This document shows positions 52,207 through 56,559 of a stretch of DNA of 57,954 nt, piece by piece. The notes under the pieces are model-generated. The model saw only the letters and a list, made by a program, of their open reading frames with translations, searched no databases and was not told where the DNA came from. Source of the DNA: Bacteriovoracia bacterium (GTDB taxonomy: Bacteria > Bdellovibrionota > Bacteriovoracia > Bacteriovoracales > Bacteriovoracaceae); the NCBI GenBank assembly GCA_030426585.1, contig JAUHYH010000001.1:1-57954 (forward strand). Direction: 5' to 3'. How positions within the stretch are numbered: the first letter of the stretch is position 1; each line of letters starts with the position of its first letter. A program made the position numbers and the translations under genes.

Positions 52207-53196
52207 GTGGAAGAGATAAAAGACAAAAAAACTATTCTTGTTCTAGGTGCCTCATCTTTTTTAGGTGTAAACCTCATAAGTTATTTAAAAACAAACCATC
52301 GAGTTATTGGAACCTACTATAATACGCCGATCCATTTTAAGGATGTCTTAACCGTTCGATTAGATATTTTTAATAAAAAAGCCCTCGATAGACTCGTTTT
52401 TGCTTTCCGACCAGATATTGTCATTTATTGTATTGGTCAAAACTCCCTCACCCGATGTGGTAAATATAGAAATGCCGCTGAGGCACTCAATACTTCCGGG
52501 GTTGTTAATACTGTTTCTACAATTGAAAAATATGGAACAAAGTTTGTGTACTTTTCGAGTCCTCATATTTTTTCTGGAGATAAAGGAAATTATTCAGAAA
52601 GAGAAACTCCAATGCCTTCAACTGTCCTTGGGGGAACTCAAGCCAATTCAGAGTTTTATATACAGAAGAACTCTCTGAATTATCTCATCTTTCGAGTGTG
52701 TAATCTTTTTGGAAGGTCTTATAATCCAGGGAAACCAAACTTTTTAGAATTTCTTGAAAATAAGTTCTTTTACCACGAACCTTTTTATTGTGATAACTCT
52801 GTAAGTACAGGTTGGTTCAGTGTTCTCTTGCTTGCCAAAATTGTTGATATGGCAATCAGAAAAAATCTCTCAAATAGGCTACTTCAAGTATGCTCTAATG
52901 AGGCTTTAAACCAATATGAGTTTGCAAAAATTTATGCCAAAGTCCATAAGCTTGATACGTCTTTTGTGTCACAAAGGCGAGTTCCTTTTCCTTTAGATGA
53001 AAAGAAAGCAATGGTTTCCGGAGTAGGGAATGCAGACTATTTGGATTTTTCGATGAGTGTTCAAAACCTTCTGAGTGTCTTCAACTTAAAGATCCCAAAG
53101 ATCGATTCAATGGTTCATAACTATTACACAATGTTGGGATTAAATATCAAAGCCGCGGCGGCACCAACTCAAAAGTCCGAGATTAAATATATCTAG
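52207..53196 (+). CDS. RmlD-like (dTDP-4-dehydrorhamnose reductase fold) extended-SDR protein lacking the catalytic Tyr/Lys
   Basis: GTG start. Rossmann motif ILVLGASSFLGVNL. VYFSSPHIFSGDKGNYSERETPMPSTVLGGTQANSE aligns with RmlD hSTDYVFDG...Y.E.D...P.NVYG.SK..GE, but Y is replaced by L and K by Q. Confidence 0.6.
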   Translation: MEEIKDKKTILVLGASSFLGVNLISYLKTNHRVIGTYYNTPIHFKDVLTVRLDIFNKKALDRLVFAFRPDIVIYCIGQNSLTRCGKYRNAAEALNTSGVVNTVSTIEKYGTKFVYFSSPHIFSGDKGNYSERETPMPSTVLGGTQANSEFYIQKNSLNYLIFRVCNLFGRSYNPGKPNFLEFLENKFFYHEPFYCDNSVSTGWFSVLLLAKIVDMAIRKNLSNRLLQVCSNEALNQYEFAKIYAKVHKLDTSFVSQRRVPFPLDEKKAMVSGVGNADYLDFSMSVQNLLSVFNLKIPKIDSMVHNYYTMLGLNIKAAAAPTQKSEIKYI

Positions 53197-53212
53197 TAAG
53201 GTCGCGCGTACC

Positions 53213-53746
53213 TTATTGGGCTGACTGGCGAATAAACTCAGTAAGATAATACTTCACAAGTGTACTGACGTTGACCTTGTCCCCTTGGAAAGTCCATTGG
53301 ATTTCATTGAAAGGCCCAACACTTGCGCGTATTTCGTGTGCAGTGTTCTCTTTTCCTGATCCATTATTCATTCTTGCTGGGTAATAACCAGAAGAATTAC
53401 TCACAAATCCAAGAGAGATCACATCGGAAGCGGCACGAGAAACTATAAGCTTTAAAGAATTTCTAAAAAGCATAAAGTCATTAACCGTATTTGAAATTTT
53501 AAACATCTTGATAGACTTATTATTAGTATAGTCATTTCTTAGATGATTAAACTTTGTTGTGTATACTTCAAAAAGCTCACGAATTTCTTCCATGAGTTCA
53601 ATAGAAGCTTCTTCAAGTTCCATTGTTGGATCAACGTGATTGTTAAAATTAACGATTCCCGTCTCGTCCATATTGATTTCTTCGAGAGCGAGATTTTCAA
53701 TCCACTTCGTGGAGAGGTTTGTGAGGGTTTCTCTAGTATTTTCCAT
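53213..53746 (-). CDS. Hypothetical cytoplasmic protein
   Basis: 177-aa ORF with an acidic N-terminal half. No family recognised. Confidence 0.45.
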   Translation of the reverse strand: MENTRETLTNLSTKWIENLALEEINMDETGIVNFNNHVDPTMELEEASIELMEEIRELFEVYTTKFNHLRNDYTNNKSIKMFKISNTVNDFMLFRNSLKLIVSRAASDVISLGFVSNSSGYYPARMNNGSGKENTAHEIRASVGPFNEIQWTFQGDKVNVSTLVKYYLTEFIRQSAQ

Positions 53747-53807
53747 ACTTTAATTTCATCGTTAATGGAGGTTTATGTCAAATATAGAGGGGGGTTAAAG
53801 AAAGAGG

Positions 53808-53991
53808 GTCCGGCGGGTCCGTGAGTTTCGCGCCCCTTCAAAGAAGGTGGGCGCAATAAGTAGTTACGTTAGGCTTCCCATTTATCTATCAATATTCATA
53901 ACAGATAATAATAGTCGGGCATGCACACAGTAACCAGTGACAGCTCCCGAAAGAGTATTTGTAGGGCGAAACACCGTGTGGTCCGCCGGAC
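53808..53991 (+). ncRNA. Candidate structured RNA or cis-regulatory leader: GC-rich ~184-nt imperfect rod-like hairpin upstream of the Tad/Flp locus
   Basis: A 12-bp closing helix joins 53808-53819 to 53980-53991 (GTCCGGCGGGTC / GGTCCGCCGGAC), including two G-U pairs that work only on the + strand. A second helix pairs GTTTCG(CG)CCC 53825-53835 with GGGCGAAAC 53964-53972. An alternative local hairpin spans 53830-53854, and an AT-rich apical hairpin spans about 53878-53920. The region stands out compositionally in an AT-rich 386-nt intergenic gap. Confidence 0.3.
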
Positions 53992-54132
53992 ACCTTAATC
54001 TAATTATACCCTAAATCTGCTATAGAAAAGCAAAAAAAACATATTTTCTCTCTTGCCTAATAAAGGCTTAACAAGCGGAAATTCCTACCAACTTATAACC
54101 CCTCTATAAGCTGTATTACAATATAAGGAGAG

Positions 54133-54339
54133 ATGAGAGACGCAGGACAAGCAGTTTTGGAATACCTTTTGCTAATGGCAATCGCTACCCTACTTTTAGG
54201 GCAGTTTGTTTCTAGTGCCTCAAGTGAAACTCAAGACAAGTTTGGAAACTTGGCACATATTTTGGCATTTAATTTATCCTCGGGAACATGCGACCAAGAT
54301 TGCTTTTTTGGTGGCTACAAAAATAGGCATAATGAATAA
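54133..54339 (+). CDS. flp: Flp-family type IVb prepilin
   Basis: Strong SD (AAGGAGAG). MRDAG/QAVLEYLLLMAIATLLL matches the Flp G/xxxxEY processing motif plus a hydrophobic helix. 68 aa. Confidence 0.6.
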   Translation: MRDAGQAVLEYLLLMAIATLLLGQFVSSASSETQDKFGNLAHILAFNLSSGTCDQDCFFGGYKNRHNE

Positions 54340-54631
54340 TAAAGAATCTGGGCAAACAATGGTTGAATACCTCTTACTTTCCCTTGTGATTGTAACGATT
54401 ATTTATGGGGTCATAAAATCTGATGTTTTTAGAAATGTTGTCGATATTGATGGCGGAGTCATGGAAGGTTTGTATCGTAGAATGCGTTACTCTTATAGAC
54501 ATGCTTTGCCTGGAAATAAAAAAATGAACCCTCGTACGGATTATAATTCGACGAAACATGATTCGTATCTTAATCCACAAACTAATTTTTCAAGATTTTT
54601 TGCTCCAAATGCTGGCTATCCGAGGCAATGA
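54332..54631 (+). CDS. Flp/TadE-like prepilin (second pilin-like gene)
   Basis: MNNKESG/QTMVEYLLLSLVIVTIIYGVI has the same G/xxxxEY motif. The start at 54332 overlaps the flp stop by 8 nt; the ORF-track start at 54206 is rejected. Confidence 0.5.
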   Translation: MNNKESGQTMVEYLLLSLVIVTIIYGVIKSDVFRNVVDIDGGVMEGLYRRMRYSYRHALPGNKKMNPRTDYNSTKHDSYLNPQTNFSRFFAPNAGYPRQ

Positions 54632-55179
54632 TGAAAAAGCTTCATCGTAACCAATCTGGGCAAGTGACAATAGAGTTCATTTTTGCCTTTAGTTTGTCAG
54701 TAATGTTTCTCGTGTTCTTTCTCTACTTTGCTTTTAATTTTACAGTTGGCTATATCGTTCATTATGCAACCTATTCAGCATCTAGGGCGTATTTAAGTCA
54801 CGATATAGTTTCGAGAACTCCAGGTGTGAGTTTAAGAGAAGCGAAAGCCCATGCTCAAAAAGAATTCGACAGTTATTCATTGAAGTCATTTGGAATCAAA
54901 TCTAAAAATGGTTACTTGCTTCAATTTAATGATCCGGATAGCGATACAATTTATGAATATGTTGGAGCTCTTTTTAGTTTTAAACCACCATTTTCTAGGC
55001 AAGATGCTAATGAACAAGATTTAGAATATTTATCTGAGTCTTTCTTGGGGCGAGAACCCTCTCGAGCGGAATGTGGTTGTCAAATTCTAGAACATATTGA
55101 TGGTTTTAGTTGCCAGGGTGGCGACTTTGATATGAAAAACCAAGCGGGGGAATTAACGGTTTATGATAATGGCTGTTAA
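54628..55179 (+). CDS. TadE-like pseudopilin
   Basis: MMKKLHRNQSG/QVTIEFIFAFSLSVMFLVFF matches the TadE N-terminal pattern G-x-x-x-h-E-F + TM. 183 aa. 4-nt overlap with the previous gene. Confidence 0.6.
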   Translation: MMKKLHRNQSGQVTIEFIFAFSLSVMFLVFFLYFAFNFTVGYIVHYATYSASRAYLSHDIVSRTPGVSLREAKAHAQKEFDSYSLKSFGIKSKNGYLLQFNDPDSDTIYEYVGALFSFKPPFSRQDANEQDLEYLSESFLGREPSRAECGCQILEHIDGFSCQGGDFDMKNQAGELTVYDNGC

Positions 55180-55672
55180 AAAAATTTTAAAACAAGAAGA
55201 AGGAGTTGCCTTCTTTGAGTTTATTTTCTTTTTGCCATTAATGGTTCTTCTCATGGGACTGTTGGTTAGTATTGGTAATTCAATCAATGGGTCAATTAAC
55301 CAACAAAAAATTGCACGGTCTTATTTTTATTCCCGCATTTCTAATAACTCACTCTTTCCATTAAAAAATAATGACCCAAATTCAAATCAAAAATTTTGGA
55401 AATCTTTTGGAATGTTCTTTATCGGTTGGAGAGAGAAATCTGAGGGGGAGTTCCCGGTTCAACCTTGCTATAAATTTCGACTTCCTTTTGCAGGGGAAGA
55501 GCAGTCTTGTCAGGAATATCGAAAAAACTCTACTGAATATGTCAGGGTTGGGACGGTTTACGGGGCCTGTGGGGCCACCTATGTGGTTGTGGGCCAGCAA
55601 CCCATACGCGCACCACGACCAACGGCGACTGATTTAGTCAGCTCCTATCACGGTTGTACAATTAGGGAGTAA
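55163..55672 (+). CDS. TadE/TadG-like pseudopilin
   Basis: ..KQEEG/VAFFEFIFFLPLMVLLMGLLV. 169 aa. Overlaps the previous gene by 17 nt. Confidence 0.55.
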   Translation: MIMAVKKILKQEEGVAFFEFIFFLPLMVLLMGLLVSIGNSINGSINQQKIARSYFYSRISNNSLFPLKNNDPNSNQKFWKSFGMFFIGWREKSEGEFPVQPCYKFRLPFAGEEQSCQEYRKNSTEYVRVGTVYGACGATYVVVGQQPIRAPRPTATDLVSSYHGCTIRE

Positions 55673-55731
55673 TTCTTTCCTCCGGGCCCGATTAACAGGG
55701 ACATTTCGTACAATTAAGATGGGAGAAATAT

Positions 55732-56559
55732 ATGAATTCACGAGCTTTTACACTGTCTGTCCTCATTGCGGGAATCGCCATGTTTATGGCTTGGTCTTAT
55801 ATTGACTCGGAGGAATCTGCCCTCATAAAAAAATATGGGAACTCTCAACCTGTCGTTGTTGCAAAACAAGACATACGAGAACTTGAACTTATTGATGATA
55901 CAAAAGTTCAGGTTATTACAGTTCCTCAAAAATTTATTCAACCCGGTCATATTAAAAGGATTGAAGAAATTTACAATACGATTGCTGCCACTCCGATTAA
56001 AAAGGGAGAGCAGATTACAAAACCAAGAGTAACCCAACCGGGATCACGAACAGGTCTCGCGAACCAGGTGAGCGTCGGTAAAAGAGCTTATGCAATCAAT
56101 GTAAGTGATTCTCAAGCTGTTGGAAAACTTATTAAACCAGGTGATAGGATCGATATTCTTTCGGTTATTAACTATGCTCCAGGGCAACTCGAAAAATTAA
56201 AAGTAAAAACTGTTCTTCAAGATGTCTTGGTTCTTTCAACAGGACTTAAGGTTACCAATGAACTGCCACTTGCTTATGTTGAAAGGAACGAAGAACTGAG
56301 AAGGCTTAATTTAAACCGTCACACTGATTACAACACAGTGACAGTTGAGCTTAGTCCAGCTGAAGTTCAAAGGATGATCTATATTGTAAATGCAGGTTCT
56401 CGGATTCATCTCAGCTTAAGAAATAATGATGATAAAACCATCGAAAGACTTCCCTCTACACATTTATTTGATGTGTTGGGTGAAGATCAGATGGAGGCTA
56501 GAAAATACTACAAACAAAAAGAGCTAGAAACTCAAAGAAGACGAGGAAACTCGCGATAA
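55732..56559 (+). CDS. cpaB: Flp pilus assembly protein CpaB/RcpC
   Basis: N-terminal TM, a SAF-like segment (VVVAKQDIRELELID...ATPIKKGEQIT) and the RcpC motif GKRAYAINVSD..GKLIKPGDRIDIL. Confidence 0.75.
   Translation: MNSRAFTLSVLIAGIAMFMAWSYIDSEESALIKKYGNSQPVVVAKQDIRELELIDDTKVQVITVPQKFIQPGHIKRIEEIYNTIAATPIKKGEQITKPRVTQPGSRTGLANQVSVGKRAYAINVSDSQAVGKLIKPGDRIDILSVINYAPGQLEKLKVKTVLQDVLVLSTGLKVTNELPLAYVERNEELRRLNLNRHTDYNTVTVELSPAEVQRMIYIVNAGSRIHLSLRNNDDKTIERLPSTHLFDVLGEDQMEARKYYKQKELETQRRRGNSR

Follow-up and report, generated by a model that had tools for sequence, protein, structure and literature searches.

The GC-rich element in the gap upstream of the Tad/Flp operon is almost certainly (probability about 95%) a minus-strand gene, ssrS, which encodes the 6S RNA of an uncultured bacterium from the Bacteriovoracaceae/Halobacteriovoraceae group (Bdellovibrionota). 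This reading is based on a full-length Rfam match, the single copy of the element, a rod architecture with compensatory changes, a conserved -10 box and a U-rich tract. The gap 5' of the operon would accordingly be annotated as a housekeeping 6S RNA gene and not as a pilus riboswitch, and the value of the result lies chiefly in this annotation. An earlier note on this DNA had left open two alternatives, a leader for pilus expression and an independent sRNA, and the second is very probably the correct one. The element shows those hallmarks of 6S RNA that sequence and predicted structure can reveal, and by analogy it would bind the holoenzyme and template pRNA.

Within the window, by which we mean the whole analysed stretch of 57,954 nt, the intergenic gap covers 386 nt (53747-54132) between a minus-strand ORF of 177 aa and a plus-strand pilin-like ORF of 68 aa. 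The G+C content is 0.500 at 53808-53991, compared with 0.321 (53747-53802) and 0.314 (53996-54132) in the flanks of the gap and 0.363 in the whole window; these figures agree with the sharply GC-enriched segment of about 184 nt in an AT-rich gap that had been described from the letters. The element itself (53803-53995, 193 nt, 50% G+C) has a rod-like fold, and the energy of its minus strand (-67.2 kcal/mol, z -4.17) was equalled by none of 200 dinucleotide shuffles. Other details of the earlier description can be read directly in the sequence, including a plus-strand closing helix of 12 bp with two G·U pairs (53808-53819 with 53980-53991), the helix GUUUCG(CG)CCC/GGGCGAAAC, a local hairpin of 25 nt at 53830-53854, and an AT-rich apex.

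The identity of the element was obtained when the whole window was compared by cmscan with 4227 Rfam families; the sole gathering-level match was 6S/SsrS RNA (RF00013) at 53803-53995 on the minus strand. The match scores 47.3 bits against a gathering score of 46.4 (a margin of 0.9 bit), covers model positions 1-187 of 187, and has an E value of 2e-6 in the window and 2.3e-8 in a 651-nt stretch. The alignment is good in the core round the central bubble and in the terminal arm (GGGAGC…GUGUGCAUGCCC…GGGAAGCCUAA…GCGCCCACCU), the latter being its best-conserved portion; the closing stem is mostly deleted, and the apex carries an insertion. The layout previously called 6S-like thus corresponds to a match over the full model. 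The same search takes away the novelty that had been claimed, since the RNA family is already known, and leaves the feature standing as a real but ordinary 6S gene. Only one RF00013 match is present in the assembly (2.65 Mb in 287 contigs, 90.7% complete). Weak cmscan rows elsewhere in the output for the gap, namely mir-703 (E 0.08) and two CRISPR-repeat models (E 0.85 and 2.8), are far under their gathering scores and were discarded as chance.

The features of the locus are listed below, in the order of the RNA and followed by the two neighbouring genes; R1 is the family model described in the next section.

54003-54008, minus strand: -10 hexamer TATAAT, 7 nt upstream of the modelled 5' end (sequence and 76 homologous loci)
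53803..53995, minus strand: 6S/SsrS RNA gene, 193 nt, ends given by the limits of the Rfam and family models (RF00013; R1, 149.2 bits)
53983..53995, minus strand: closing stem, 5' strand, RNA nt 1-13, AGG + GUCCGGCGG (MFE fold, arm duplex energies)
53964..53972, minus strand: bubble-proximal ('downstream') helix, 5' strand, RNA nt 24-32, GUUUCGCCC (paired in the MFE and consensus structures)
53949..53963, minus strand: central bubble, 5' strand, RNA nt 33-47, UACAAAUACUCUUUC (unpaired in the MFE and consensus structures)
53849..53948, minus strand: terminal (apical) arm, RNA nt 48-147, with a GGGAGC/GCGCCC helix, internal loops and an AT-rich apical hairpin
53835..53848, minus strand: central bubble, 3' strand, RNA nt 148-161, with the 5-bp hairpin CCUUC-UUU-GAAGG
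53825..53834, minus strand: bubble-proximal helix, 3' strand, RNA nt 162-171, GGCGCGAAAC (MFE and consensus structures)
53805..53816, minus strand: closing stem, 3' strand, RNA nt 180-191, CCGCCGGAC + CCU (MFE fold, duplex energies)
53797..53805, minus strand: U-rich tail UCUUUCUUU, 3' of the closing stem (T runs in 78 homologs)
53213..53746, minus strand: ORF p177, a conserved 177-aa protein, downstream neighbour of 6S
54133..54339, plus strand: ORF flp68 (68 aa), the Flp-type pilin-like gene that opens the Tad-like operon, divergent from 6S

In the window, the arm-to-arm closing duplex reaches -36.9 kcal/mol (z -4.4). The central bubble, with 15 nt in its 5' strand and 14 nt in its 3' strand, is mostly single-stranded and has G-C-rich helices on either side. 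The CG in the GGCGCGAAAC strand is bulged compared with most relatives, and the apical hairpin is a 35-nt AT-rich insertion with respect to the Rfam consensus. By analogy, the GUUUCGCCC strand (53964..53972) would be the pRNA template region, and the U-rich tail UCUUUCUUU is a possible termination site.

Distribution and conserved architecture

Of 41 related genomes (G000 counted in), 34 have a single RF00013 match, and 29 of the 41 score above the cut-off. Among the 24 genomes of the same family it matched 19 and missed five. A family model (R1), for which 20 family sequences were aligned with MAFFT (alignment A1), recovered a single copy, at 113-136 bits, in four of the five missed genomes (G012, G014, G020 and G022; loci L115-L118); the fifth is only 66% complete and is also without an R1 match. 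RF00013 is therefore at its sensitivity limit in this lineage, where the family-specific model outperforms it. A separate search with p177 found 124 relatives, of which 80 loci from Bacteriovoracaceae, Halobacteriovoraceae and Bdellovibrionota MAGs were kept. R1 matches 6S in 78 of these p177-anchored loci, always on the strand of the p177 gene; the other two (L061 and L100) have a p177 homolog and no 6S RNA detectable by unfiltered search in the available flank.

Comparative alignment, which had been proposed as a check for covariation, revealed compensatory changes in two sets of sequences. RNAalifold on A1, an alignment that was not fitted to a structure, predicted 28 pairs, 12 of them with compensatory double changes. 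In the second alignment (A2), whose 76 distinct rows come from the R1 matches in the p177-anchored loci and were fitted to the model structure and whose shuffle significance is overstated because the sequences are related, 97.2% of cells are paired compared with 93.4% in shuffles, 13 of 28 pairs change on both sides compared with 7.4, and 120 cells carry both-side changes compared with 28.9; for each of these three measures the observed level was reached by 0 of 500 shuffles. When the partners in A2 were slid by 1-3 columns, paired cells fell to 33-52%. Helices 2-4 of the terminal arm have compensatory changes in both alignments.

Parts of the rod that vary in sequence retain their pairing. 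The closing stem does not align by sequence and was assessed by duplex energies: the arms form a duplex with z < -2 in 69 of 76 homologs (median 15 bp, 75 distinct arm sequences), and z is -2.2 or lower in 30 of the 34 first-set Rfam matches. The apical segment pairs over at least 4 bp in 75 of 76 homologs with 72 distinct sequences, the lone exception containing an N. Likewise, 74 of 76 homologs form a hairpin of at least 4 bp in the 3' bubble strand; 46 different sequences are represented, and the stems covary (CCUGUC/GACGGG, CCUAGC/GCUGGG, CCUAUU/AAUGGG and CCUUC/GAAGG). The GUUUCGCCC/GGGCGCGAAAC and GGGAGC/GCGCCC helices are (nearly) invariant in the 20 family sequences, and in the 5' bubble strand of the same sequences T33, A34 and C35 are invariant and A36 and A37 near-invariant. 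The rod architecture, consisting of the closing stem, the bubble-proximal helix, a bubble of about 15 + 14 nt and the terminal arm, is maintained through compensatory changes in about 100 relatives.

Strand and transcription signals

Which strand is read separates a 6S gene from a quite different possibility, namely that the flp/tad operon has its cis-regulatory leader or riboswitch here, on the plus strand, and that this RNA switches between the rod and the local hairpin. Such a leader could draw on the plus-strand fold of the element (-64.5 kcal/mol, z -3.24, again equalled by 0 of 200 dinucleotide shuffles), but any rod-like RNA is expected to fold well on both strands. It could also draw on the position of flp/tad, which adjoin the element in 70 of 80 loci; this adjacency is as conserved as that of p177 and therefore cannot decide the strand. 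In L042 and other loci, moreover, an extra pilin gene and about 565 nt lie between the element and the flp68 ortholog. A third argument for the leader is the 12-bp closing helix with its two plus-only G·U pairs, which the earlier note had taken as evidence for a plus-strand transcript. This is offset by G001, from the same genus: on its minus strand the closing helix is GUCCGGCGG/CUGUCGGAC, and two of the pairs are G·U, which on the plus strand become A·C mismatches (compared by eye).

The comparison across all homologs points to the minus strand as well. When the 28 modelled pairs are read on this strand, 290 G·U pairs are found against 7 A·C among 2110 cells, and two G·U pairs are invariant in 76 of 76 rows. 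R1 gives the element in the window 149.2 bits when the minus strand is scored and 12.1 bits (E 0.27) for the opposite strand. Among 4227 models, cmscan placed no Rfam family, whether c-di-GMP-I or any other riboswitch or leader, on the plus strand over the element at E<=10.

Of 76 homologous loci, 68 carry a hexamer that agrees with TATAAT in at least 5 of 6 positions and ends 2-13 nt before the RNA start; 54 of these boxes are exact and 23 are preceded by TG. Among 1560 random positions, 140 pass the same test. The conserved TATAAT stands 4-7 nt upstream of the start of the 6S RNA and is directed away from flp. A -35 box is not recognisable on the minus strand, and a scan for consensus promoters and terminators over 53150-54350 found no minus-strand promoter, because it required a -35 match; the -10 box emerged only by comparison. 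Of 78 homologs, 41 have a run of at least four T at the 3' end of 6S, while 212 of 1560 control positions have one. Judged from sequence, transcription of the 6S RNA uses the minus strand and runs away from flp, as indicated by the excess of G·U over A·C, the minus-strand TATAAT, the U-rich tail and the R1 and Rfam scores. The reading as a plus-strand transcript is accordingly largely refuted, a cis-regulatory leader or riboswitch for pilus expression is most improbable, and flp68 is probably not cis-regulated by the element, as far as the evidence reaches.

Two contigs of 154 and 157 nt from RNA libraries lie on 53823-53972 with 2 differing letters; they come from two runs of one metatranscriptome study and are strand-blind. 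In both runs the contig cover is confined to 53823-53972, which, for assembled contigs of one study, is uninformative on the ends and level of the RNA and on silence of the flanks. The contigs are weak evidence that an RNA library contains this element or its counterpart in a very close relative, as assembled contigs may also reflect DNA carry-over. A further RNA contig of 89 nt, which differs at 5 positions and has a loose end resembling an adapter, could not be interpreted. A DNA run (X1) is near-identical to the window and may be its source, so it is not independent.

The RNA-library contigs also bear, weakly, on the idea that the element is non-transcribed palindromic DNA, i.e. a repeat, a protein-binding site or a mobile-element remnant in the divergent promoter region. 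Such DNA could be suspected from the length of the imperfect inverted repeat and its locally raised G+C, but the element is single-copy in the genome, its compensatory pattern is rich in G·U pairs that are relevant to RNA only, and the unpaired nucleotides of its bubble are invariant. This explanation is hardly credible.

Alternative pairing and likeness to known 6S RNAs

The pairings that share GCGCCC had been interpreted in the earlier note as a switch. The MFE structure of the free RNA contains, in the 3' bubble strand, the hairpin CCUUC-UUU-GAAGG, which is the core of the 'competing hairpin' at 53830-53854. A pRNA hybrid was mimicked in silico by blocking nt 24-35, i.e. the GUUUCGCCC strand plus UAC. 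With this block, the thermodynamic prediction for the window contains GCGCCC..CUUC-UUU-GAAG-GGGCGC, which is the hairpin 53830-53854, and the pairing grows from 5 to 10 bp. With the template blocked in the relatives, the median local pairing of the 3' segment is predicted to rise from 4 to 9 bp, with a gain of at least 2 bp in 66 of 75. As modelled, the alternative pairing is real and conserved, and this part of the claim stands, whereas the supposed switch corresponds to the known 3'-bubble hairpin of 6S RNAs, a family property whose role in this element we infer.

In E. coli-type 6S RNA, according to PMC8876501, unwinding of the downstream helix during pRNA synthesis leads to a 9-bp hairpin in the 3' bubble strand, which drives release. 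The same paper describes B. subtilis 6S-1 as having a small 3'-bubble hairpin already in the free state; this RNA is reported to form no extended 3' hairpin and to use a 'central bubble collapse helix'. By analogy with these two RNAs as treated there, the RNA of the element would mimic an open promoter and occupy the active site of the housekeeping sigma-RNA polymerase holoenzyme, which would damp transcription once growth stops. During outgrowth, a short pRNA would be copied by the polymerase from the GUUUCGCCC strand and the 5' bubble strand, if the mechanism in that source holds here. The synthesis of pRNA would free the GGGGCGCG strand, and the freed strand could extend the small 3'-bubble hairpin to the 10-bp hairpin (53830-53854), with release of the RNA. 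The non-growing attack phase makes 6S RNA a plausible regulator in predatory Bdellovibrionota, and one may speculate that this phase is the natural time of 6S action in a predator.

How does the element compare with the known systems? It resembles E. coli-type 6S RNA (RF00013) in its length of about 190 nt, in the succession of closing stem, large central bubble and terminal arm, in the G-C-rich helices that border the bubble, and in its full-model Rfam match above the gathering score. It differs from this type in its borderline score, in a closing stem that aligns poorly, in the 35-nt AT-rich apical insertion, and in a promoter with a -10 box only and no -35. A predicted likeness is that its 3'-bubble hairpin would reach about 9-10 bp once the downstream helix opens, as described for E. 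coli 6S in PMC8876501. With B. subtilis 6S-1 (same source) it shares a 3' bubble strand that already carries a hairpin of 5-6 bp in the free state; unlike 6S-1, it is predicted to form an extended 3' hairpin. B. subtilis has two 6S genes (PMC10578484), whereas a single one is present in this genome.

A 6S-like shape could also belong to an RNA with another partner or role, either a binder of core RNA polymerase like Ms1 or a paralog like 6S-2. Ms1 RNA of actinobacteria is, like the element, rod-like, and it binds RNA polymerase (PMC9130861). The enzyme form bound by Ms1 is the core enzyme, Ms1 is another family, and the window has no Ms1-type Rfam match. What might argue for an altered role is the borderline Rfam score, together with a search of one literature library that returned neither biochemistry of 6S in Bdellovibrionota nor a discussion of 6S RNA in the predatory members. 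Against this, the element is the only 6S-like gene in the genome and therefore the default housekeeping copy, and its best-conserved parts flank the central bubble, as in canonical 6S RNA. Furthermore, the predicted behaviour of the 3'-bubble hairpin fits the 6S release mechanism as given in PMC8876501. An altered role is very unlikely.

Genomic neighbourhood

The 6S gene lies directly upstream of p177 in 78 of 80 Bacteriovoracaceae-type loci. The two are usually about 60 nt apart; in four loci (L112, L093, L097 and L083) 6S is about 1.1-1.5 kb upstream of p177, and something has been inserted. At the start of p177 in the window, the minus strand reads TTGACA (53776-53781), 17 nt, TGAAAT (53753-53758), 6 nt and ATG. 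Defined as TTGACA, a spacer of 16-18 nt, a weak -10-like hexamer and 6-8 nt before ATG, this arrangement is shared by 74 of the 78 loci, whereas among 2334 random ATGs it was counted at 129; TTGACA is exact in 66 of the p177 loci, and the distance to the ATG is 6 nt in 67. The upstream sequence of p177 has no Shine-Dalgarno motif. The arrangement suggests that p177 is transcribed from a promoter of its own, probably into a leaderless mRNA, with 6S as a separate transcription unit. In E. coli, the arrangement is ssrS-ygfA, in which 6S is followed by the gene for 5-formyltetrahydrofolate cyclo-ligase. The 3' neighbour of the element is not such a gene but the unrelated p177 with its putative promoter.

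The product of p177 has no match in Pfam or NCBIfam and falls only into unnamed clusters in the ESM Atlas. Its AlphaFold model is moderate (pLDDT 73.8), and Foldseek against the PDB returned nothing at E<=0.001. The model resembles frataxin/CyaY-like alpha-beta sandwiches only weakly and was given no assignment, the best VIA-align rows having Z 5.2-7.3, below the level that the tool regards as meaningful.

The gene order around the element is kept across the family: a convergent RmlD-like gene, p177, 6S and the divergent flp-tad genes form a block that covers 52207-56559 in the window and recurs in loci L035-L114. All 80 loci have p177, through which they were chosen; 74 also have the convergent RmlD-like gene, 70 flp68 and 68 a TadE-like gene. 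It is possible, though unlikely, that the block is functional and not just inherited, with one short divergent control region shared by the 6S gene and the pilus operon, or that the family-restricted p177 works with 6S or RNA polymerase. If the block were functional, pilus expression and global transcription damping would be adjusted jointly as cells pass between attack phase and growth.

On the other side of the gap, flp68 has no Pfam match, and CpaB/RcpC was confirmed downstream in the Tad-like operon. In L042 (959-2013), a gene that by sequence appearance encodes an extra Flp-type pilin of 71 aa lies between 6S and the flp68 ortholog, and just beyond that ortholog is a gene for a polytopic membrane protein of 168 aa, possibly a prepilin peptidase (a guess from sequence). 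Flp pilins and TadE/F pseudopilins carry a G-x4-E-Y/F motif ahead of a hydrophobic stretch. The four small proteins that open the Tad-like operon in the window (54133-55672; 68, 90, 183 and 169 aa) have no match in Pfam or NCBIfam, and all four have G-x4-E-Y/F before a hydrophobic stretch.
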